From contig BTVV01000042.1 of the NCBI GenBank assembly GCA_045863855.1, positions 1 through 47,460 on the forward strand: a stretch of 47,460 nt of DNA, written 5' to 3'. Under the pieces are notes generated by a model. That model searched no databases and was not told the origin of the DNA. It worked only from the letters and a program-made list of their open reading frames with translations. The number at the start of each line of letters is the position of its first letter. Within the stretch, counting starts at the first letter, position 1. Positions 19,585 to 35,767 of this stretch are shown one piece after another. This DNA is from Planctomycetota bacterium. Lineage in GTDB: Bacteria > Planctomycetota > SZUA-567 > H5-PLA8. The translations under genes were made by a program, and so were the position numbers.

Positions 19585-20478
19585 GTGATCCGATGGATGC
19601 TCTCGATCCTGCTCTGCGTACTGGCCATGGGCGCAGGGGCCGAAGACGCCGCGCAGACGCCGCGCAAGAAGCTCGTCGTCTGTTCCACCACGCAGGTCGC
19701 CGATTTCGCGCGCCAGGTGGCGGGCGATCACCTGAAAGTGCAGTGCATCCTCGCGCCGGGCGCCGACCCGCACCTGTACGAACCCAAGCCCGGCGACGCA
19801 CGCTTGGTCCAGCAATGCGATCTGGTGCTCCAGAACGGGCTGGGCCTGGAAGGCAAAAACTGGATGGCCACACTGGCCCAAGACGCGGCCAAGCCCGTCG
19901 TGACGCTGACCGACGGCATCAAGCCGCTTAAACTGGAGGAAGAAGGCGCCGCGCACGACGATCCGCACGCTTGGTTTACGCCGGCAAACGCCGCGGTGTA
20001 CATCCGTAACACGCTGGCGGCGCTTACCAAGCTCGAGCCCGAGCACGCGGCTGCCTTCGAAGCGCGCGCGCAGCTTTACTTGCAGCAACTGCGCGTCCTG
20101 GACGGCTGGATCAAGGAGCAAGTCAACCAGATCCCGAAAGAACAGCGCATCCTCGTCACCAGCCACGATGCCTTTAACTACTTCGCGCAGGAATACGGCT
20201 TCAAGAACGAAGCGCCCGCCGGCTGGTCCACCGAGGGCGAGATCACGCCCGACGCCCGGCAGCGCGTGGTCCGCTCCATCTCCGGCTTCAACGTGAAGGC
20301 GATCTTCGTCGAGACGAGCGTCAACCCGAAGGTGATCGAAGACATCGCGCGGGAGGCGGGCGTGAAAAAAGGCGGCGAACTATACTCCGATTCGATGGGC
20401 GCGGCGGGCACGGCCGGCGAAACCTACATCGGCATGATGCGCGAGAACGTCCTGACCATCGTGAACGCGCTTAAGTAG
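19585..20478 (+). CDS. Metal ABC transporter substrate-binding protein (TroA/MntC/ZnuA cluster A-I)
   Basis: Signal peptide; PGADPHLYEP, NGLGLE, DPHAW, LVTSHDAFNYF, IFVETSVNP, LYSDS (His/His/His/Asp TroA-type ligand set); GTG start behind GGAGGAG. Confidence 0.93.
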   Translation: MIRWMLSILLCVLAMGAGAEDAAQTPRKKLVVCSTTQVADFARQVAGDHLKVQCILAPGADPHLYEPKPGDARLVQQCDLVLQNGLGLEGKNWMATLAQDAAKPVVTLTDGIKPLKLEEEGAAHDDPHAWFTPANAAVYIRNTLAALTKLEPEHAAAFEARAQLYLQQLRVLDGWIKEQVNQIPKEQRILVTSHDAFNYFAQEYGFKNEAPAGWSTEGEITPDARQRVVRSISGFNVKAIFVETSVNPKVIEDIAREAGVKKGGELYSDSMGAAGTAGETYIGMMRENVLTIVNALK

Positions 20479-20506
20479 TTCCGTTCGGCTGGCGGAGGCG
20501 AAGACG

Positions 20507-21035
20507 ATGCGGCTGGCTTTGGTGGCGGCGATCTGGGCGATCCTGGTGGGCGGCGTCCACGCGTATCTGCATCTGCGCACGGAAGCGCGGCCCGCGCCGG
20601 ATACGCGCTTCGAACGCGCCGAGGCGGCGGGCCGCTACGAACTGGAGGTCACGGCGAGCTTCTCCTGGCGCGCGGAAGACGCCGCACCCGATCCGTTCGC
20701 CCTGAAGGCCGAGACCTCCGCCGCGCCGCCGCTCGCGTTCAAGCTCGACGGTCAGGACCTGCCCGTCTGGTCGCAGCCCCTTGAGGCGGGGCAGCCGGTG
20801 CGCACCGCCCCCCTCCCCGGCGTCAAGACCGGGATCGTCGAGATTCTGGTGCGCGCGCAACCCCCGCCGGACGAAGCGCAGCGCCGCCACGCGCTGCGCT
20901 TGCGCCTTCTGCGCGACGGCGAAGCCCTCGACGAGCGCACCTTTTGGACCGAGCCCGGCCTGGGGCTGACCGCCACCTTTGCGGTGCGCGTCGATTCGGC
21001 GCAGAGCCCCTGGCGCGCGGAAGGGCACGAACACG

Positions 21036-21046
<11 letters not shown>
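20507..21046 (+). CDS. Hypothetical membrane-anchored protein inside the metal ABC operon
   Basis: GGAGG RBS, N-terminal TM/signal, predicted beta-rich body, C-terminal EGHEHDGH; overlaps the ATPase start. Confidence 0.65.
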
Positions 21047-21847
<801 letters not shown>

Positions 21848-21851
<4 letters not shown>

Positions 21852-23383
21852 GCGGCTTGTACGATTTTTTTGCCGAGCCCTTCGCGTACCCCTGGTTCGC
21901 CAAGGCGCTCTTGTCCGGTTGTATCGTGGCCTTGGTCTGTTCGGTGGTCGGCTGCCTAGTGATTCTGCGGCGCATGGCCTTCCTGGGCGATGCGCTCTCG
22001 CATGCCATGATCGCCGGGGTCGGCGCCGGATACCTTTTCACCAAGGTCGTCTTCGGCTACCGCGCGCACGCGCCCAGCATGCTCATCGGCGCGCTCCTGG
22101 CGGCTGTCTTGACCGTCATGCTGATCAACTTCGTCTCGCGTTCGAGCCGCATCAAGGAAGACGCGAGCATCGGGATCATGTATTGCTTCATCTTCGCCGC
22201 GGGGCTCGTCCTGGTCACCCGCTTCCAGGATCTGATCCACATCCACATCCAGCACTTCCTCGTCGGCGACGTGCTGAGCGTGGCCGACGACGACTTGAAG
22301 CTCGTTGCCTACGTCGCCGCCGCGGTGCTCACCTGCATCGTCGTCTTTTTCCGGCACTTCCAGATCGCCGCGTTCGATCCGGTCATGGCCGCCTCATTGG
22401 GCTTCAACGTGGGTCTGCTGGATTACCTCTTCACCCTCTGCGTCTCGCTGGTGGTGGTGAGCGCCATCAGCATGGTCGGCGTGATCCTGGTGGTGGGGCT
22501 GTTGATCACTCCGGCGGCCACGGCCTACCTGCTCACCGACCGATTGAACCGCATGATGGCACTGGCCGGACTCTTCGGCGTCAGCAGCGTGATCGGCGGT
22601 CTTTACCTGGGCGTGGCGCTCAATTCGTCAGGCGGCGGCTCGATCATGGTCTTTTGCTCGCTGCAGTTTCTGCTCGTCCTGGCCCTCTCGCCGCGCTACG
22701 GGCTGCTGGCGGGTTGGCTGCGGCGCCGCGGCCGCGTACCGCAGGACCAAGTCGAGGATCTGCTCCGCGCGGTGCTCAAATCCGGCACGGCGCAGCAGCC
22801 CGAACAACTGGCGCAGCAAGCCAACCAGCCGCTCCACCGCGTGCAGCGCACGCTCAAGGCCATGCGCAAAGACGGACTGCTCGAGGAGACCGGCGGCGCC
22901 CACGCCCTCACCGCCGCCGGGCTCACCCAGGCCAAGCGCGTCATGCGCGCGCACCGGCTCTGGGAAACGTATCTCCAGCGCGTCGGCACCCCGGACGCCG
23001 AGATCGACGCGCGCGCGCACTCGCTGGAACACATCTACGAAGAAGAAGCGATCGACTACCTCGATCACAAGCTCGGACATCCGCTCATCGATCCGCACGG
23101 CAGCGAAATTCCGGCCGACTTCGTGCATCTGGAAAGCGGGCTTCCGGTGATGCTGAGTCTGCTGCGCAACGAACAGCGCGCGCGCGTGGTCTCGCTGCGC
23201 GAACCCAGCGCGGGAATCGAACTCAAAATCGGCGAAACGATCGTCATGGCCGGGCGCGGCGAGGAAGGAAAGGTCTGGTCGATCCGGCGCGAGGACGGCC
23301 GCGTGCTGCAGCTTCCGCACGAACTGGCCGACCGCGTGATCGTTCAGGTGCTTACGGGTGATGCGGTGCCCATCAAGGGCTGA
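21848..23383 (+). CDS. Metal ABC transporter permease (ABC-3) fused to a C-terminal DtxR-like domain
   Basis: ABC-3 motifs RRMAFLGDALSHAMIAG, KEDASIG, AFDPVMA, VGVILVVGLLITPAATA; after about 22721 a wHTH, RAHRLWETYL...AHSLEH...DPHGSEIP and a FeoA/SH3-like tail; ATG 21848 overlaps the ATPase stop. Confidence 0.9.
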
Positions 23384-26755: not shown

Positions 26756-27244
26756 TTAAGCCTTGACGGTCGCCTTGACGATCAGGACCGGCTGCTTGGG
26801 TTGCGCTTCGCTGAGCCGCCCCGGCTTTTCCACCGCCACCTTGCGAATCTTGTCGATCACATCGGTGCCGGCCACGACCTTCCCGAAAGCGCAGTATTTG
26901 CCGTCGTCGAGGAAATCGTTGTCCGCCACATTGATATAAAATTGCGCCGTGGCGCTGTTGAGGTCGCTGGTGCGGGCCATGGCCAGGCCGTACATGCAGT
27001 TGGTCGCGCCGTTGCCCGACTCGTTCTTGATCGGGGCGCGCGTGGCTTTCTGCTTGCCGCTCTGATCGAAGCCGCCGCCCTGAATCATGAAGCCGTCGAT
27101 CACGCGGTGAAAGATCGTCGCGTCGTAATGCTTATCGGTCACGTACTGCAGGAAATTCTTGACCGTGACCGGGGCCTTGTCCTGGTACAGCTCGGCCTCG
27201 AACGAGCCCTGACTGGTCTCGAAGACGACGACGGGGTTGGCCAT
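26756..27244 (-). CDS. Cyclophilin-type peptidyl-prolyl cis-trans isomerase
   Basis: APVTVKNF, YDATIFHRVIDGFMIQGGGF, AMART..SATAQFYINV, FGKVVAG; ATG 27244 behind AGGAG. Confidence 0.95.
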   Translation of the reverse strand: MANPVVVFETSQGSFEAELYQDKAPVTVKNFLQYVTDKHYDATIFHRVIDGFMIQGGGFDQSGKQKATRAPIKNESGNGATNCMYGLAMARTSDLNSATAQFYINVADNDFLDDGKYCAFGKVVAGTDVIDKIRKVAVEKPGRLSEAQPKQPVLIVKATVKA

Positions 27245-27434
27245 GGCGTTTCTCCTGGGTTGAGCGTTTGAAGAATCGAATGTAGTGGATGTTCCGAAAG
27301 CCCGCAACCGTGAGCCGGAGCCGGCGAGGCCGCAAGGTGCTTTCGCCTTTGGACGCTCCGCGCCCCCAATCCCGATCTTGTAATCCCGGCCAGAGGCACC
27401 ATAACCGGTATCCTTACACAACGGGGATACGGGC

Positions 27435-28010
27435 ATGCTGGGCTTGGTGTACCGCCTGCTCTTTAAGATGGTCGCGGACAAAGGCGGACCCGAAGCCGTC
27501 GCCCGCGTGCGCGCGCAGGCCGGGGTCGACGAGGCCCGGGTCTACCGCATGAACGAGCCGTACCCCGACGACGAATGGCAGCGCATCTTCGCCGCCGCCT
27601 GCGACGTCCTCGATGTCGCGCCCGGCAAAGCCGAAAAACTCTTCGCCGAATGCTTCTTCGCCGACGCTTACGCGCGCTTCCCCAAGTGGTTCGAAATGTG
27701 CAAGACCGCGCGCGAACTGCTGGAACTCCAGCCCGTAATCCACAACGGATTCGCCACGGGCCTTCAGGCGCCCGCCGAACGCCATAAGGTGATCGACAAG
27801 TTCCGCGTCGAAGCGCAGGACGACCGCATCGTCACGCATTATCGTTCGCCCAACAAACTCTGCGGTTTCTACGTCGCGCTGGTCGAACGCGTACTCGCTC
27901 ACTACGGCGAACGGGCCGAGATCACCATGCTCAAGAGCCTGAAAAAAGGCGACGACGAATCGGAGATCGCGATCCGCTTCTTGGGCAAGGATACGCGCCA
28001 TGCCCGCTGA
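27435..28010 (+). CDS. Heme NO/O2-binding (H-NOX/HNOB) domain protein, divergent
   Basis: 191 aa; H-NOX-type start MLGLVY..L..MV...GG, Y.....YPD.E, His103 at the proximal-ligand position, YRSPN aligned with YxSxR, V4R-like C-terminus. Confidence 0.8.
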   Translation: MLGLVYRLLFKMVADKGGPEAVARVRAQAGVDEARVYRMNEPYPDDEWQRIFAAACDVLDVAPGKAEKLFAECFFADAYARFPKWFEMCKTARELLELQPVIHNGFATGLQAPAERHKVIDKFRVEAQDDRIVTHYRSPNKLCGFYVALVERVLAHYGERAEITMLKSLKKGDDESEIAIRFLGKDTRHAR

Positions 28011-29223
28011 AGATCCCATGGACATCCGCGTGCCGGACGCCGAGCTGCGCGCCTGGATCGAGCGCATCGCCGACGAACTGTGCCTGACCGTGAACGGGCA
28101 ATTCGACCATCTCGTGCGCGTCGAAGTGAACGACGACTCGCTCGAAAAGCTCCAGATGCTCGTCAATTTCGTCCTCGACCACGCGCGACGCGCGGCCGAA
28201 GCGCGCCAGGAAGCCGACCGGCTGGTGCGCGAGAACCTGACCCTGGCCCGGCAGGTGGGCACCTATCGCGAACTGGGCCATTACCGGCTCGAGGAGATCA
28301 TCGGCAGCGGCGGGATGGGCGAAGTCTGGCGCGGGCGGCACCGCATGCTCGCACGGCCCGCCGCCGTGAAGCTGATCCGCCGCGAAGCACTCGGCATCCA
28401 CAACCCCGACCGCACCATCTCGCGCTTTCAGCGCGAAGCGCGCGCCACGGCCAAGCTGCGCAGCCCGCACACCATCGCCGTGTACGACTTCGGGGTCCAC
28501 GAGAACGATTTCTACTACGTCATGGAACTCCTCGAAGGCGTCGATCTGCACACGCTGATCCAGGAAGACGGCGTGCAGCCGCCCGAGCGCGTCGCGCACA
28601 TCCTCGAACAGGCCTGCCACTCGCTCGAAGAGGCGCACCGCGCGGGCCTGGTGCACCGCGACATCAAGCCCGGCAATCTGCATCTCTGCCAATACGGGAT
28701 CGACTACGATTTCGTCAAAGTGCTCGACTTCGGGCTGGTCAAGAGTTTCCAGGACAGCACCGAGCCGCATCTGACCGAGGACGGCAGCTTTGCCGGCACG
28801 CCCGCCTTCCTCGCGCCGGAATCGATCGTCGGCAAGCGCCCCGTGGATGGACGCGCCGACCTGTACGCGTTGGGGCACACGGCCTACCTGATGCTCGCCG
28901 GGCGGCAGTGCTTCGAATCCAGCACGCCCTTCGGCGCGGCCATGAAGCAGGTCAACGAGACGCCGGTCCCGCTTTCGGCGCATCCTGGCGTCAAAATTCC
29001 CGAAGCGCTGGAAAAGCTCGTGATGAGCTGCCTGGAAAAAGATCCCGACCGCCGGCCCCCATCGGCCGGGGATCTGGCGCGCGAACTGCGCCACTCGAAA
29101 TTAGCCGAGGCATGGACCGAGGACCGCCAGCGCGCGTGGTGGGAACGGTGGTGGCTGCGCCACGGCGGGCGCAAGCCCGAGTCGGACGACTCCAACGTGG
29201 CCAATGAACTCTTGAATCCGTAG
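28000..29223 (+). CDS. Soluble Hanks-type Ser/Thr kinase with N-terminal HAMP-like helical domain
   Basis: IGSGGMGEVW, AAVK, HRDIKPGN, DFG, GTPAFLAPE, DLYALG; no TM segment; 11-bp overlap with the H-NOX gene. Confidence 0.92.
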   Translation: MPAEDPMDIRVPDAELRAWIERIADELCLTVNGQFDHLVRVEVNDDSLEKLQMLVNFVLDHARRAAEARQEADRLVRENLTLARQVGTYRELGHYRLEEIIGSGGMGEVWRGRHRMLARPAAVKLIRREALGIHNPDRTISRFQREARATAKLRSPHTIAVYDFGVHENDFYYVMELLEGVDLHTLIQEDGVQPPERVAHILEQACHSLEEAHRAGLVHRDIKPGNLHLCQYGIDYDFVKVLDFGLVKSFQDSTEPHLTEDGSFAGTPAFLAPESIVGKRPVDGRADLYALGHTAYLMLAGRQCFESSTPFGAAMKQVNETPVPLSAHPGVKIPEALEKLVMSCLEKDPDRRPPSAGDLARELRHSKLAEAWTEDRQRAWWERWWLRHGGRKPESDDSNVANELLNP

Positions 29224-29236
29224 CCGGACGAAGCGC

Positions 29237-29680
29237 TTACTGGCCTTCGAGCACGCGCAGCCGTTGCTGCACTTCGCGTTTGCCCAGCCCGCGCACGGCG
29301 GCCAGCGCGGCAATCTGCGCCTTGCGCGGCTGCGTCTTCCCGGACTCCCAGAAATAAACCGACTGCGCCGACGCGCCCACCAGCTTGCCGTAATCTCCTG
29401 CCGATAGATTCAGCTTTTCGCGGTGCTTTTTCAGCCAGATCGGACTGAAGCGGACCTTCTCGGCCTTCGCGCCGCTCAACTCCGGCTTGGCCACGCGCTC
29501 GCGTTCCTGGCCTTCCAGGAAGGCGACTTGCCTGACCAGCCGCGCGACCTGCCGCTTCAGCGCCGCGATATCGCGGCGATATTGCGCCGACGCGCGCTGG
29601 AGGTGCCCCGTCTGCGAACGGCCTTCCTTACGCGATATGCGCGCAATTTCGGACTTCAATGTAGCGGCGAAACTGGACAT
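29237..29680 (-). CDS. XRE-family HTH transcriptional regulator with N-terminal coiled coil
   Basis: LKSEIARISRKE, coiled coil, REKLNLSAGDYGKLVGASAQSVYFWESGKTQPR. Confidence 0.85.
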   Translation of the reverse strand: MSSFAATLKSEIARISRKEGRSQTGHLQRASAQYRRDIAALKRQVARLVRQVAFLEGQERERVAKPELSGAKAEKVRFSPIWLKKHREKLNLSAGDYGKLVGASAQSVYFWESGKTQPRKAQIAALAAVRGLGKREVQQRLRVLEGQ

Positions 29681-29784
29681 TATTCGAAAGCCCTCGTTTA
29701 GAATGGCTTCGCATGATAGCCGATTTAGAAAAAATAAAGCGAAAGAAATACACTTGGGCGATCGAACGCCGCTTTAAGCCGGTT

Positions 29785-31773
29785 TTACGATTTCGCAGTA
29801 AATAACGGGATGGCCAGGCACACGCCGCCTAACATCACCGCCCAGCCCAGGCCGGGCACGAACCAGCTCGTAAACGTGAGCAGCGCGCCGCATAAGCCGA
29901 ACGAGAGGCTCTTCGATTTGCGCGAGTAAAGCATATACGCCGCGCCGAGCACCGACGAGATAAAGCCGTACATGATCCGGCCCGTGGAAAAATGACCGTC
30001 GTCCTCGTACGCCTCGCCGATCGACGAGATCGGCATGATCGGCTCCACCACTTTGGCTTTGCCCATCTGCCGGTCCACCTTGTCCATCATGCCCAGCATC
30101 TTGTTCTGGTAGTCGGCCTGCGCTTGCGCGGCTTCCTCGGCCTTGGTCAGCGGTCCGGGATGCGAAGCCGGGGCGGGCGTAACGGCGGGCGCGGGCGCCG
30201 GAGCGGGACGCTGCTGCGCTTCAAGCAGCACCCGCGCCTCCTGCTCGGCTTTCGCGCGCTCCTCGGCGGAGGCCGCGGGCTTGCCCGGCCCCATCGCCAA
30301 CATCGCGATACCCGCGCCCATAAAACCCGCGAGCACCAGCGCCGCGATTAGCTTGCGCGTGCCGGCCTGCCCCGAACCTTGCGCGCGCAGCGCGTGCTGC
30401 GCCTCGATCTCCAGCACTTCCGCGCGCTTAGGCTTCGCCGCGGCCTGGTACGTCATCTCGTCGAAGTAGACCGGCTCGCCGCTCTTCTTGGAGGCTTCCG
30501 GCTCGGCCTCTTGGCGGCGAATCGCTTCGACCGCATGCGTCTGCTCGTCGGGCTTGTCGAGGACGGTGCGCACGAGCTTCAGCGCGCGCAGCAGCGCCTC
30601 GGCATCCTTGAAGCGGTGCCGCGGCTCCTTGGCCAAACAGCGGTCGACCAGCGCGCACGATGCCGGCGACGCGTCGGGGCGCAGCGTCGCGAGCGGCTCG
30701 TGCGGATCTTTCATCGTCTTCATGATCGCTTCCATGGGCGAAGGCGCCTGGAACGGTGCGCGGCCCGTCAGCAGCGCGTACAACGTCGCGCCCATGGAAA
30801 AAATGTCGGCCGGCTTGCCGCATTTGCGCGCATCGACGGCCTGCTCGGGCGCCAGGTAGCCCGGCGTGCCCATCGCCGTCTGGCTGGCGGTGAGCGACTG
30901 CCCGTGCTCTTCGGTGCGCGCGAGGCCCAAGTCCGCGAGTTTCCCCCGCCCCAGCATCAACTTCCCGCTGCTCACGTCCATCGGCAGCAGAATGTTGTCT
31001 GGCTTGATATCGCGGTGGATAATCCCTTCCTGGTGCGCGGCCACCAGCCCCTGCGTCGCGGCGATGCAAATATCCAGCGCGTCCGCTTCGCTCACGCCTC
31101 CGCGCTTGTGCTTCTTCTGAAAGCCTCCCGCGCTTTCTCCGTTGATGTACTCCATGACGATGAAGAAAAGCCCGTTCTCTTCGCGGGCTTCCTGCACGCT
31201 AACGAGGTTCGGCGACTTAATCCGTGCGGTGAGCGTCGCTTCGCGCACGAAGCGCTGGATCATCTGCGGATCCTGCTCGGCCATTTGAAACGGAAGCACC
31301 TTCACGGCCACCGGACGGTTCTCGGCTTCCAGCCAGCCCAGGTACACAGCGCCCATTCCGCCCTGGCCCAGCTTGGCCATCAACGGCACACCGCCCAGCG
31401 CCGGCACCTTCCCGTCTCTGAAGACCTTGCGCGAAGCGGGCATCAGTAATTTTTCTGCGCTCAAATCCTGAGTCGGTAAATGCGTGTACGACTGCGCGTC
31501 GCCGGCCGGAGCGGGCCCCTCTTTCGCCGCGGCTGCATGACGCGGCGGCGTCTCGGAGAAGACGAAGTTCGCCGCGGGCTTCCCTGGCGGCTTGGCCGGA
31601 AGCGTCGGACCAGCGGGGTTTACGTTCTGCCACGGCGAGGTGAGCGGCGCTTGCGTCGGCTCCGGCAAGCGCGGCGGCGCGGGCTGCGGCGGCACTGCGG
31701 CCGTGTTTTTCTTGTTCGTCGGCTTCGGCGTCGAGAACCCAAACGGGTCGGCTGATTTTTTGGGATCGGGCAT
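29785..31773 (-). CDS. Ser/Thr protein kinase with Pro-rich N-terminus and multi-TM C-terminus
   Basis: LGQGGMGAVY, VAVK, HRDIKPDN, ADLGLA, GTPGYLAPEQ, DIFSMG; one TM after the kinase and three short TMs at the C-terminus. Confidence 0.9.
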   Translation of the reverse strand: MPDPKKSADPFGFSTPKPTNKKNTAAVPPQPAPPRLPEPTQAPLTSPWQNVNPAGPTLPAKPPGKPAANFVFSETPPRHAAAAKEGPAPAGDAQSYTHLPTQDLSAEKLLMPASRKVFRDGKVPALGGVPLMAKLGQGGMGAVYLGWLEAENRPVAVKVLPFQMAEQDPQMIQRFVREATLTARIKSPNLVSVQEAREENGLFFIVMEYINGESAGGFQKKHKRGGVSEADALDICIAATQGLVAAHQEGIIHRDIKPDNILLPMDVSSGKLMLGRGKLADLGLARTEEHGQSLTASQTAMGTPGYLAPEQAVDARKCGKPADIFSMGATLYALLTGRAPFQAPSPMEAIMKTMKDPHEPLATLRPDASPASCALVDRCLAKEPRHRFKDAEALLRALKLVRTVLDKPDEQTHAVEAIRRQEAEPEASKKSGEPVYFDEMTYQAAAKPKRAEVLEIEAQHALRAQGSGQAGTRKLIAALVLAGFMGAGIAMLAMGPGKPAASAEERAKAEQEARVLLEAQQRPAPAPAPAVTPAPASHPGPLTKAEEAAQAQADYQNKMLGMMDKVDRQMGKAKVVEPIMPISSIGEAYEDDGHFSTGRIMYGFISSVLGAAYMLYSRKSKSLSFGLCGALLTFTSWFVPGLGWAVMLGGVCLAIPLFTAKS

Positions 31774-31876
31774 ACTGGACCGTCCTCACCATACGCAGTC
31801 GGTTACGTTTTAAGTTATGCACCATGAAAATCAAGCGGATTAAACTATTGCACCAGTAGGCTTTGCATCAATAAAG

Positions 31877-32890: not shown

Positions 32891-33077
32891 GCCAGGAGAC
32901 TCCCAGGGGCTTCGCCATCCGTCGCGTTGCGAGCCTCATTATAGGGGTTCGCCCATGCGCCACAAGCGCGCTGGTATCCTTGATAGGACCTTCGCAAAGC
33001 CCTGTAGATAGAGTCCGCCCGGTGCTGTTAAGTTGGTGCCAGGTAGAGGTATAATGATTTACAGGAGCGGTACCCGC

Positions 33078-34748
33078 ATGACGGCTTACGGTTCGATTCG
33101 CGGCCTTTTCGTCCTCGCGCTCGCACTGGCCGGCCACCCCGTGCGCGGCGGCGATGTGCCGGCGGCAACTCTGCCCGAAGCGCCGTCCGTCCCCGCGGGC
33201 GCCAAGGCGCTCAACACGTTCAAGCTCCCCGCCAACGCGTCGATCATGATTATTCCGATCAACGACACCGAATCCACGCGTTACGGCATGATCGACAATT
33301 GGCAAGCCGGCTTCGTAACCCGCCGCCTGCAAAGCGCCAAAGCCGACGGCTACGCCGCGGTAGTGCTGGAGATCGACACCAACGGCGGCTCCGTGGCTGC
33401 GTGCGAACGGATCAATAAGGAGATCGCGCACGCCGGCGTCCCGGTGATCGCCTTCGTGCGCGGCAAAGCGTTTTCCGGCGGCGCCTTGATCAGCCTCGGC
33501 AGCGCCACGATCGTGATGGAACCCGGGACGCAGATCGGCGGCGCACAGGCCGTCAGCCTCTTCGGCGACCTTGATAAGGACGAACGCGAGAAGGCGCGCA
33601 GCATGCTCGTCGCCATGGTCAAGGGGTTGTGCGAACGCAACGGGCACCCCGAGACGCTGGCGCACGCCATGGTCGACAGCGATGTGGAAATTCTCGAGAC
33701 CGACCGCCCCGCGCCGCGCTTCATGACCGGGGACGAACTCGCGGACTGGAAGAAGAACGAAGCGGCCCGCGGGCCGGCGCCGGCCGTTAAAGCCACCTTT
33801 AAGGAGTCCGGGCAGATCCTGACCCTTACCTCCGGGGAAGCGATCGACGTGGGTCTGGCCTCGCAGATCGTCGCCGACCGCGACGCGCTCATGCAGGCGC
33901 TGGGCGTCGCGCCCTCGAACGCGGTGCTCGCGGGCGTCACCTCCAGCGAGAAAGTTTCGCGCTTCCTGGGCCATCCGGGCTGGCTGGCGCTGCTGGTGCT
34001 GGTTGCGCTGGGCGGCTTGATTTACGAACTCAAAACCCCGGGCATCGGCCTGGGGCTGGGGCTCTTCTTGTTCTGCATGGGCCTCTTCTTCTGGCTCGCC
34101 TTCTTCGCCGATACGACGGGGCTGGTCGAGATCTCGATCTTCCTGCTCGGCGCGGTCCTGATCGGCGTGGAGATCTTCGTGCTGCCCGGTTTCGGTGTGG
34201 CGGGGATCGCCGGAGGCATGCTCGTACTCTTCTCCATCGTCCTGGCCTTCATCCCGCAGGGCACCAGCATGAGCGAACTGTGGGAACAGAGCGACGCCGA
34301 CCCGTTCAAGGCCGAACTGATATACGAAGGCTTGAAGTGGGCCTCGATGACGCTCTTGGCCGCGGGACTGTGCATCGCGACGGCGCTGGTCGCGGGCGTG
34401 CGCTTGCCGGGCGTCAACCGCCTGGCGCTGGCGCGCGAAGTGGCGCTGCGTCCCGGGGGCGGCGTGAGCGTCTCCGCCGGACCGCCGCAGCCCGAACCGC
34501 TCGTCTCGGGCATGACGACCATCGCCGGACCGAAGCCCATGTCCGCCAAGCCGCCGCCCAGCGCCCGCCCCGCGGCGGAACTGATCGGGAAGGAAGCGCT
34601 CGCCGAAACCGTCCTGCGCCCCTCGGGCAAGGTGCGGCTGGAAGGCGTCACTTACGAAGCGATGGCCGAAGGCGACTGGGTGGACGCCGGCGCCAAGGTT
34701 AAGGTACTCTCGGTCGGACCCTACGGACTCGTGGTGCGTCCGGTGTAA
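33078..34748 (+). CDS. nfeD: Long NfeD-family membrane-bound ClpP-class serine protease
   Basis: Signal peptide; LEIDTNGG, AFSGGALISL (Ser), IGGA, REK (Lys), AMVD, ILTLT..EA; TM block with ELKTPG and EIFVLPGFGVAGI; C-terminal OB fold LRPSGKV; AGGAG RBS and TATAAT at 33050. Confidence 0.85.
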   Translation: MTAYGSIRGLFVLALALAGHPVRGGDVPAATLPEAPSVPAGAKALNTFKLPANASIMIIPINDTESTRYGMIDNWQAGFVTRRLQSAKADGYAAVVLEIDTNGGSVAACERINKEIAHAGVPVIAFVRGKAFSGGALISLGSATIVMEPGTQIGGAQAVSLFGDLDKDEREKARSMLVAMVKGLCERNGHPETLAHAMVDSDVEILETDRPAPRFMTGDELADWKKNEAARGPAPAVKATFKESGQILTLTSGEAIDVGLASQIVADRDALMQALGVAPSNAVLAGVTSSEKVSRFLGHPGWLALLVLVALGGLIYELKTPGIGLGLGLFLFCMGLFFWLAFFADTTGLVEISIFLLGAVLIGVEIFVLPGFGVAGIAGGMLVLFSIVLAFIPQGTSMSELWEQSDADPFKAELIYEGLKWASMTLLAAGLCIATALVAGVRLPGVNRLALAREVALRPGGGVSVSAGPPQPEPLVSGMTTIAGPKPMSAKPPPSARPAAELIGKEALAETVLRPSGKVRLEGVTYEAMAEGDWVDAGAKVKVLSVGPYGLVVRPV

Positions 34749-34770
34749 GGAAAGGCGGAACCGCGTTCGC

Positions 34771-35250
34771 ATGAACCCGTTGCTGATTTCGATCCTCCTT
34801 ACTTTCGCCATGGTGGTCATGGTGGCGCTGGAACTGCTCACGCCGTCCTTCGGCATCCTCACGGTCGCCGCGCTGGGCGTGATGTGCGGAAGCATCCTCA
34901 TGGGCTTCCAGCACTCGACGGCCGCGGGTTTCGCGATGAGCGCCGTGAACCTGACGGTCTTCCCCATCGCCGTGCTGGTGATCATGCAGTTCATCAAGCG
35001 CAGCCCGCTGCTGCATCAGGGCGACATTCAGGCGTCGCTCCATCCCGAGCAAGCCGACGGCGGCGCGCGGCATCTGGCCGAGCCCGGCGAGGAAGGCGAA
35101 GCGATCTCGCCCTTGCGCCCGAGCGGCATGGTACGCTTCGGCGACCGCCGCATCGAAGTGGTCACGCCGGGCAAGTGGATCGATCCCGGCACGAAAGTTC
35201 GCGTCTTGCGCGTCGAAGGCAGCAAGATCGTCGTCGAAGCGGCGGAGTGA
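34771..35250 (+). CDS. Short NfeD-family protein (TMs plus OB fold)
   Basis: LELLTPSFGIL; GEAISPLRPSGMVRFGDRRIEVVT.G.WID.G..VRV..VEG..IVV. Confidence 0.85.
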   Translation: MNPLLISILLTFAMVVMVALELLTPSFGILTVAALGVMCGSILMGFQHSTAAGFAMSAVNLTVFPIAVLVIMQFIKRSPLLHQGDIQASLHPEQADGGARHLAEPGEEGEAISPLRPSGMVRFGDRRIEVVTPGKWIDPGTKVRVLRVEGSKIVVEAAE

Positions 35251-35260
35251 CCCGCCGCAC

Positions 35261-35767
35261 ATGGAACCGCTCGCCTGGTCCGTCCTGTTCCTGCTGCTCA
35301 TGGCCGCCGCGGTGGTGCTCGAATTCTACGTGCCCAGCTTCGCGATGCTGACGGTCGCGGCGGTGCTGTGCGGAGTGGCCAGCGTCTGGTACGCCTTCGG
35401 GCATTCGACCGGCGCGGGACTGGGCATGTGCGCGGCGAACCTCGTCGCCGCCGGCCTCGCGATCCTGCTGACCATGCATTTCATGCAAGGCAACCCTCTG
35501 GCGAACCGGCACGAAGTCCAGCCGCGCAACGGTTCGGCGGCCGCGCCGCCCGCCGCGGACGCGCGCATCGGCCGGATCGCCCTCGCGCGCTCCGACCTGC
35601 GCCCGTCCGGAGCCGTGGAACTCGAATCCGAACGCCTGACGGCCATCACCGAAGGCGGTTTTATAGAAGCCGGTACTCCCGTGCGCATCCTCCGCATCGA
35701 CGGCGCGCGCGTGGTCGTGGAAGCCTGCGCCGCGGAAATTCCGACTGCCGGGACCGCCGAAGCGTAA
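35261..35767 (+). CDS. Short NfeD-family protein, paralog of the preceding gene
   Basis: LEFYVPSFAML; ARSDLRPSGAVEL..ERLTAITEGGFIEAGTPVRI..IDG.RVVV. Confidence 0.85.
   Translation: MEPLAWSVLFLLLMAAAVVLEFYVPSFAMLTVAAVLCGVASVWYAFGHSTGAGLGMCAANLVAAGLAILLTMHFMQGNPLANRHEVQPRNGSAAAPPAADARIGRIALARSDLRPSGAVELESERLTAITEGGFIEAGTPVRILRIDGARVVVEACAAEIPTAGTAEA

Follow-up and report, generated by a model that had tools for sequence, protein, structure and literature searches.

The 47,460-nucleotide stretch considered here (the window; positions 1 to 47,460, forward strand, of contig BTVV01000042.1 in assembly GCA_045863855.1, from a Planctomycetota bacterium) contains a gene for a stand-alone protein of the HNOB/H-NOX family, the end of which overlaps the start of a gene for a soluble Hanks-type Ser/Thr kinase (Table 1). 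An initial annotation, made from the sequence alone, had drawn attention to this pair, and the stand-alone H-NOX gene and 11-bp overlap that it described are confirmed by a match to Pfam HNOB (PF07700) and by the two open reading frames. The two genes form a genuine signalling cassette that is conserved, and the kinase is one among several interchangeable outputs rather than a stand-alone invention. The initial annotation overlooked a HAMP-like module at the N-terminus of the kinase, together with a set of non-canonical residues in the H-NOX protein.

The product of the first gene belongs to the HNOB family by both sequence and fold. Its HNOB match, over residues 3-164, scores 69.7 bits (E 3.7e-19), well above the gathering cut-off of 25.5. 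The AlphaFold2 model (pLDDT 92.7) has the two-subdomain H-NOX fold, and Foldseek aligns it with solved H-NOX structures at E 1e-10 and TM-scores of 0.73-0.79, the value of 0.79 being reached with the S. oneidensis structure 4U99.

The product of the second gene is, by profile and motifs, a Hanks-type Ser/Thr kinase for which phosphotransfer can be predicted. The Pkinase profile matches residues 95-354 at 143.8 bits, and the Hanks motifs are all found, in agreement with the intact catalytic motifs annotated at first: the Gly loop (102-109), Lys124, Glu146, HRD (219-221), Asn226, DFG (243-245), APE (272-274), Asp287 and Arg352. The catalytic residues are invariant in 10/10 aligned module-bearing kinases, and the activation segment (243-274) holds Ser249, Ser253, Thr254, Thr259, Ser263 and Thr267. 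The absence of a transmembrane segment, also annotated, follows from a highest 19-residue hydropathy of 0.81. From its N-terminus the protein consists of the HAMP-like module, a coiled coil, the kinase domain and a short Trp-rich tail. Assignment to the PknB/Stk1 PASTA kinases was rejected (236.6 bits against an NCBIfam cut-off of 450, and no transmembrane segment), as was assignment to the BREX, MADS or lanthipeptide kinases, for which the scores fall far under the NCBIfam cut-offs.

Both open reading frames are real genes to judge by third-codon GC, which is as expected in GC-rich DNA (0.82 for the H-NOX frame and 0.85 for the kinase frame). Three shadow frames (27414-28262 and 27931-29094 on the minus strand, 28080-29207 on the plus strand) were set aside in favour of the two plus-strand frames with profile matches and coding-type third positions. 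The gene overlap suggests translational coupling of H-NOX and kinase; among relatives from the same H-NOX clade, the partner gene mostly starts near the H-NOX stop.

Table 1. Features of the H-NOX/kinase locus and its flanks, in window coordinates
Feature	Position	Strand	Description	Basis
Stand-alone HNOB/H-NOX-fold protein	27435-28010	+	191 aa, ATG to TGA	Pfam HNOB, AlphaFold2, Foldseek
Soluble Hanks-type Ser/Thr kinase	28000-29223	+	407 aa, ATG to TAG	Pfam Pkinase, motifs, hydropathy, 10-kinase alignment
Overlap of H-NOX stop region and kinase start	28000-28010	+	11 bp	
HAMP-like module, probable docking site	28039-28197	+	kinase residues ~14-66	conservation, model, structural comparison
Helix from module into kinase N-lobe, probable signalling coiled coil	28198-28275	+	kinase residues ~67-92	model, relatives
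Kinase catalytic domain	28282-29061	+	kinase residues 95-354	Pfam, motifs
Cyclophilin, divergent flank	26756-27244	-		Pfam
Coiled-coil and XRE-type helix-turn-helix (HTH) protein, convergent flank	29237-29680	-	147 aa; end 13 bases from kinase stop	
Second Ser/Thr kinase	29785-31773	-	662 aa, Pro-rich N-terminus, hydrophobic C-terminal stretches	

Coupling of an H-NOX clade with a HAMP-like module

In its AlphaFold2 model (pLDDT 91.3) the module forms a helix, a 17-residue connector and a long helix. A structural re-alignment of 86 chains placed HAMP-bearing proteins in all of the top 11 rows (Z 5.9-7.8, with the next, unrelated row at 4.5), Z values that the tool itself describes as common for helical folds; the best match was 3ZRW (Z 7.8, root-mean-square deviation 2.3 A over 77 residues). 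The Atlas neighbours of the module are mostly HAMP clusters, below the bar for naming (feature scores under 0.9). Foldseek returned no significant E-value. With 77 module sequences, no Pfam HAMP family was among the matches listed (25 of 50 families) at E up to 1, nor was one found in 48 partner proteins at E 1e-5, and a profile search of the PDB gave no HAMP chain, only noise from coiled coils and leucine-rich repeats. The module is accordingly called HAMP-like here, a designation drawn from the models; it carries no Pfam name and is not filed as HAMP proper. Like the HAMP domain (Af1503 type, PF00672), it is predicted to run as helix, connector and helix into a signalling helix. Unlike that domain, it has strongly conserved surface residues of its own and lies at the extreme N-terminus, with no transmembrane helix or fused sensor ahead of it, an arrangement that fits an input supplied in trans. 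No second copy was found in the genome of the window. As a separate observation, kinase Cys28 (window 28081-28083), in the first helix of the module, is Cys in 67/77 rows and could be a redox or metal site.

The conservation of the module beside H-NOX was established from loci chosen by H-NOX patterns alone, namely 44 genome loci and the best 80 of 148 metagenome loci (124 altogether); the module profile was built from 93 partner-gene starts out of those loci. A module-bearing gene adjoins H-NOX in 44/44 genome loci, downstream in 37 and upstream in 7, and in 72/80 metagenome loci, some of them as contig-end fragments. Seven of the eight metagenome misses end no more than 54 bases from the H-NOX stop, and the remaining one (L102) has room downstream and only 159 bases upstream. 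The reverse test, a module-only search of 1,404 genome slots in four phyla (401 + 301 + 301 + 401), scored 14-18 candidates per genome, so that misses are likely. It gave 12 hits, half of them in genomes already known for the pair, and at five of the six new hits the gene immediately upstream encodes an H-NOX of the same clade (E 1e-36 to 1e-75). Among 1.84 billion library representatives the module defines only 232 clusters; in 148 of the 150 clusters listed its start falls within the N-terminal 55 residues, and one of the exceptions is the fusion protein P0197 (see below).

The enzymes behind the module are diverse. Among the 44 genome loci the outputs are 22 histidine kinases (one with a PP2C domain), 9 sigma-54 activators, 6 PP2C phosphatases, 3 Ser/Thr kinases and 4 truncated or unclassified proteins; among the 72 metagenome partners they are 30 histidine kinases, 20 sigma-54 activators, 2 PP2C phosphatases, 2 Ser/Thr kinases and 18 truncated or unclassified proteins. 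EAL or GGDEF-EAL outputs adjoin H-NOX at two reverse hits (L181 and L182), and two proteins of 225 residues each (P0181 and P0202) join the module to a STAS output that we take to be RsbR-like. In nine loci (L014, L019, L023, L025, L027, L030, L031, L042 and L045) the module leads straight into a sigma-54 AAA+ activator, and these partners are candidate H-NOX-controlled transcription activators. In eight others (L034, L035, L039, L040, L041, L044, L084 and L124) the order is reversed, with a module-SpoIIE/PP2C gene upstream of H-NOX; the titled records among them are Acidobacteriota, and these loci are the phosphatase counterpart of the kinase version. The coupling of the H-NOX clade with the module is thus shown to be conserved, and the outputs to be interchangeable.

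The sensor and the module are even found in one polypeptide: in P0197 the H-NOX, the module and a histidine kinase are fused in frame, and a Met lies close to the junction. Two points count the other way. P0197 is a single protein in which a stop codon may simply have been lost, and one module-bearing histidine kinase (L177, 508-1878, minus strand) follows a GGDEF-EAL gene, and neither the surrounding 1.5 kb nor the rest of its genome (G529) gave an H-NOX; it may be an orphan socket, unless a contig is missing. A second candidate fusion (P0204, 1 among 8,000 candidates) was not counted, its H-NOX end being garbled as by a frameshift. At another locus (L048, 4386-5039) both the module gene (121 aa) and H-NOX (a 58-aa fragment) seem broken.

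Chance adjacency of the pair was ruled out by this recurrence and by the shared N-terminal module. The genome of the window, which is 94% complete, has one HNOB gene and 84 kinase-like domains in 83 frames; taking a rough figure of 6,000 genes, a single H-NOX/kinase adjacency would arise by chance in about 1 case in 70.

The Ser/Thr kinase is the rarest of the swappable outputs, present at 5/124 loci (L005, L007, L008, L050 and L051), where the flanking genes differ; the H-NOX plus Ser/Thr kinase pairing does then recur in other genomes, although L005 nearly duplicates the window locus (98% identical). The three titled records of this version are Planctomycetota, all known copies come from assembled environmental genomes, and a separate protein search gave 6 clusters of module-kinase proteins at 90% identity. 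The five kinase-linked H-NOX proteins are 45-70% identical. In a quick, unrooted tree of 76 H-NOX rows (the fragment L048 left out) they fall on one side of a single branch (SH-aLRT 89). No flanking gene is shared in any of the 10/10 pairwise comparisons of the five loci, two of which (L050 and L051) have short flanks. Neither the HTH neighbour nor the second kinase of the window was accordingly retained as a fixed part of the system. The simplest reading of the unrooted tree would be a single output swap followed by long retention. Sensor and module distances are correlated (rho 0.49, 0/999 shuffles), a result not counted as co-evolution because related sequences are not independent.

The same distribution could be read as a sign of decay, with the kinase version a relic or accident of domain shuffling from which H-NOX control has been lost. 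The pair is patchy, occurring in 3/41 related genomes with that of the window included, and in two family members (G004 and G012) the cyclophilin abuts a polyprenyl synthase gene, so that the 4.6-kb block comprising the pair, the HTH gene and the second kinase (window ~27300-31800) is absent between the same flanking genes. Planctomycetota moreover have many kinases of shuffled architecture (PMC11032199), the 84 domains of this genome being a case in point, and the window H-NOX has lost two Cys residues (see below). Both genes are intact, however, the modules of the kinase-linked loci share 57-77% identity, the invariance of the catalytic residues extends to all ten aligned kinases, and the pair has stayed together while H-NOX diverged to ~45-50% identity and the neighbours changed. 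We regard a relic as highly improbable.

The kinase itself appears to derive from a membrane receptor. In 121 genomes the kinase had 49 matching relatives, of which 30 were retrieved and 3 of these dropped as members of this system. Among the 27 remaining, the nearest module-less relatives, 25 have a hydrophobic helix no more than 80 residues ahead of the kinase domain. These membrane-anchored Planctomycetota kinases, which carry an N-terminal transmembrane sensor, belong to the same subfamily (39-53% identical in the kinase region) and share the short helix into the N-lobe. The window coiled coil occupies the position of their transmembrane helix and short linker, and in the AlphaFold2 model of the module the helix is continuous over model residues 35-79. 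A membrane receptor kinase seems, from these alignments, to have exchanged its transmembrane sensor region for the soluble HAMP-like module. Two kinases of the same subfamily (L147 and L151) have a soluble, non-transmembrane region ahead of the kinase domain, a further input swap.

A proposed model for control of the kinase

The proposed system is a two-protein cytoplasmic receptor kinase. Its kinase would form dimers by way of the N-terminal HAMP-like helices, packed as a four-helix bundle, and of the coiled coil that follows, as the fold suggests, and the separately encoded H-NOX would dock on the bundle in place of the membrane sensor of the kinase relatives. The H-NOX is presumed to hold a b-type heme on His103 and to respond to nitric oxide (NO), CO or the oxidation state of the heme rather than to O2. 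A shift of the H-NOX subdomains could then repack the bundle and travel down the coiled coil, altering kinase pairing and activation-loop autophosphorylation. In characterised H-NOX/histidine-kinase pairs, it is the NO-bound form that inhibits (PMC8738867).

Prediction of the complex points weakly to such docking. H-NOX with two module copies and heme reached an ipSAE of 0.55, where the best of 3 controls scored 0.00; at least 90% of contacts were common to the three runs, and the partner pLDDT was at least 87. The mark used for ipSAE is reached by 116/157 solved and 2/215 mismatched pairs, and among pairs that reach it at 0.60 or below are 18 solved pairs and both mismatches, a calibration that is only rough for the alignments and ligand used here. 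Within this model the two module copies had a pLDDT of 73-75, and no interface between them was returned.

That H-NOX binds the module and regulates the kinase is, in our judgement, probable. The claim of the initial annotation that ligand-bound H-NOX regulates the kinase gains from the recurrence of the pairing, the shared module, the P0197 fusion and, weakly, the complex model; the part of the claim that concerns O2 is unlikely (see below). The roles might also run the opposite way, with H-NOX mainly a substrate or a stabilising subunit of the kinase. In Pseudomonas azotoformans a Cache_heme-HAMP receptor, an NO-binding heme receptor, works with a Ser/Thr kinase that phosphorylates it, and NO raises the phosphorylation of the receptor itself (bioRxiv 10.64898/2026.05.25.727664). 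In the window, no substrate gene for the kinase is encoded with the pair, and no other substrate gene is conserved near it. What makes a substrate or subunit role quite improbable is that the same H-NOX clade and module occur with histidine kinases, sigma-54 ATPases, phosphatases and EAL/GGDEF enzymes, a variety that fits a sensor upstream of a swappable output, and that the module lies at the input end, where relatives of the kinase carry their transmembrane sensor.

The putative heme site and the nature of the signal

The residues of the H-NOX protein were followed through an alignment of 77 clade rows (76 at some positions); the genome and metagenome search patterns contained His103, Tyr136 and Ser138, and the counts for these three are partly built in. 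His103 aligns with His105 of the soluble guanylate cyclase beta-1 subunit, and the proximal His is present in 76/76 rows; against the S. oneidensis protein the profile aligner placed His103 on His99, one turn early, and a hand count gave His103. Tyr136 and Ser138 are present in 77/77 rows. All three residues are also invariant in 49/49 rows of a separate protein search, and the His together with YxSxN occurs in 5/5 H-NOX proteins reached through the module alone.

Several features of the protein and its genome weigh against a conventional gas sensor. The YxSxR motif, which holds the heme propionates (PMC8196705), reads Tyr136, Ser138 and Asn140, or YxSxN, and position 140 is Asn in 75/77 rows, His in 2 and Arg in none. 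The two hinge Gly residues, conserved in all five groups surveyed in PMC8738867, are replaced by Ala71 (Ala in 75/76 rows) and Ala148 (Gly in only 1/77 rows). The proximal Pro before strand 1 is apparently replaced as well, with an extra helix inserted at 113-120; Asp121 keeps register ahead of Phe123, and Pro113 (56/76 rows) is possibly the equivalent of the proximal Pro. A structure title records a solved A71G mutant of K. algicida H-NOX, which implies that native Ala is tolerated at the first hinge there. Taken as a whole, the YxSxN site, the Ala hinges and the apparent Pro loss indicate that the canonical activation switch is altered, and the protein is not filed as a canonical gas-sensing H-NOX. 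The 94% complete genome furthermore gave no match to ferrochelatase (PF00762), a search that did not extend to other heme pathways. The same genome does encode heme-copper oxidase subunit I, a combination that may reflect another heme pathway or a gap in the assembly. There was no match to cytochrome c552 nitrite reductase (PF02335) either, other NO pathways not having been searched.

Across the clade Lys122 and Arg81 are invariant (76/76 rows each), which may point to a remodelled pocket. Position 145, which we take, on an assumed numbering offset, to be the equivalent of the distal Tyr140, is Phe in the window copy, Leu in 57/77 rows and Tyr in 1/77; a near-invariant Tyr146 follows one place later. 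The distal Tyr140 has its role in O2 binding in Caldanaerobacter-type H-NOX proteins (PMC9814294). With no Tyr at the presumed distal position, O2 sensing is unlikely, so that the O2 half of the NO/O2 input put forward by the initial annotation is improbable; its NO half may hold. The three Cys zinc ligands of H-NOX, which figure in heme-free oxidant sensing by the V. cholerae protein (PMC7108781), are retained in 75/77 clade rows. The remaining two, the window copy and L050, keep Cys143 and have Ser168 and Ser176; with two of three Cys lost, the known heme-free zinc-thiol redox route is unlikely for the window protein.

For the window H-NOX, sensing of NO, CO or heme state is plausible on these residues, which leave room for another ligand. 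We lean slightly toward a heme-bound gas or the heme redox state as the signal; docking and regulation combined with such a signal, taken jointly, we hold to be evenly balanced. The coupling could also be real and the input something other than a heme-bound gas, the pocket sensing heme loading or another small hydrophobic or anionic ligand, with a zinc-thiol redox input added in most clade members and lost in the window copy. The clade-wide changes from Arg to Asn and from hinge Gly to Ala, the apparent Pro loss, the newly invariant Lys122 and Arg81, and the zinc Cys residues kept by nearly all members and employed without heme in V. cholerae (PMC7108781) all suit this alternative. It is made unlikely, though not remote, by the invariance of the proximal His and of two of the three propionate-binding residues, by the possibility that Lys122 or Arg116 stands in for the lost Arg, and, for zinc, by the absence of Cys168 and Cys176 from the window copy.

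Known systems, genomic setting and significance

The nearest known parallels are the H-NOX/HnoK pairs (S. oneidensis SO2144/SO2145 and V. cholerae VCA0720/VCA0719) and the H-NOX/diguanylate cyclase-phosphodiesterase pairs, in which a separate H-NOX gene likewise lies beside that of the enzyme regulated in trans. With HnoK-type H-NOX proteins the window protein shares its fold and its proximal His, and the clade generally keeps the S. oneidensis zinc Cys residues, although identity to the S. oneidensis protein is only 18-19%. It is set apart from such pairs by the Hanks kinase output, the YxSxN site, Ala at both hinges and the dedicated HAMP-like docking module. Soluble guanylate cyclase offers a different likeness, an H-NOX fold that controls a dimeric enzyme by way of a coiled coil (PMC6839917); in the window, by contrast, there are two genes, no PAS/HNOBA domain, and a kinase instead of a cyclase.

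The P. azotoformans system resembles the window pair in joining a heme receptor to a co-encoded soluble PknB-like kinase, with HAMP at the meeting point. Its sensor is a periplasmic heme c domain, its HAMP belongs to the membrane receptor, its kinase binds by means of C-terminal helical repeats and has the receptor as its substrate (bioRxiv 10.64898/2026.05.25.727664). The window pair has a cytoplasmic sensor of H-NOX fold and carries the HAMP-like module at the N-terminus of its kinase; no homology of the sensors is implied. NO alters phosphorylation in P. azotoformans, and a gas response on the window side is only predicted. Membership of the pair in the Cache_heme-HAMP/kinase system was rejected, since it has no periplasmic CXXCH Cache domain, no transmembrane segment with HAMP and no C-terminal helical repeats.

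All 13 H-NOX partners tabulated in section 5 of PMC8738867 are histidine kinases or diguanylate cyclases/phosphodiesterases, and the partners named in the initial annotation (histidine kinases, cyclic-di-GMP enzymes and fusions to methyl-accepting chemotaxis proteins) are those given there. A full-text literature search found neither an H-NOX plus Ser/Thr kinase pairing nor the module, most subscription papers being out of its reach, so that absence from print is not established. The main text of PMC11032199, on Planctomycetota kinases, has no mention of HNOB, H-NOX, heme or HAMP, and its supplementary domain tables could bear on the point. The supposed novelty of the pair holds within that search; the more general idea, a Ser/Thr kinase working with a heme receptor that binds NO, had already been published for the P. 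azotoformans system. The broadest description that we would offer, and only tentatively, is of a hitherto undescribed H-NOX subfamily with a rebuilt pocket and switch that serves as a detachable receptor for a HAMP-like socket on five or six enzyme classes (histidine kinase, sigma-54 ATPase, PP2C, GGDEF/EAL and Ser/Thr kinase, and possibly STAS), with the window locus the first H-NOX-controlled eukaryote-like kinase.

The pair stands by itself in the window, as had been annotated, with a divergent cyclophilin gene on one side and a convergent HTH gene on the other. The second Ser/Thr kinase beyond the HTH gene is 55% identical to a G012 protein encoded at a different site. The GC content of the ~27300-31800 block is not unusual. 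A promoter scan gave 0 sites, with 1 terminator-like site on the opposite strand, below shuffle levels. RNA contigs from 3 runs in 2 studies, ~95% identical, span the gene junction; they resolve neither strand nor a single transcript and may stem from DNA, and they were not used as evidence. Farther off, the plus strand at 19585-23383 holds what by eye is a Mn/Zn-type ABC transporter operon, with a permease seemingly fused to a metal-repressor-like domain, and at 33033-35767 a long NfeD protein followed by two short open reading frames, NfeD-like by eye. Between 36001 and 38000 the GC content falls to 0.56-0.58, from ~0.65 elsewhere.

If the proposed reading is right, Ser/Thr kinases, PP2C phosphatases and sigma-54 activators join histidine kinases, cyclic-di-GMP enzymes and chemoreceptors as targets of H-NOX signalling, and the part that makes the outputs interchangeable has been named; the shared HAMP-like socket would be the most useful result. 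A membrane receptor kinase would have been turned into a cytoplasmic gas receptor, and a HAMP-type bundle could take its input from a separate protein instead of a membrane helix. A 2022 review knew of no high-resolution structure of H-NOX bound to a partner (PMC8738867), and the 191-residue sensor with its ~55-residue docking module offers a small target for that question. The altered pocket, finally, tests the limits of the model of H-NOX activation built on YxSxR, the proximal proline and the glycine hinges.

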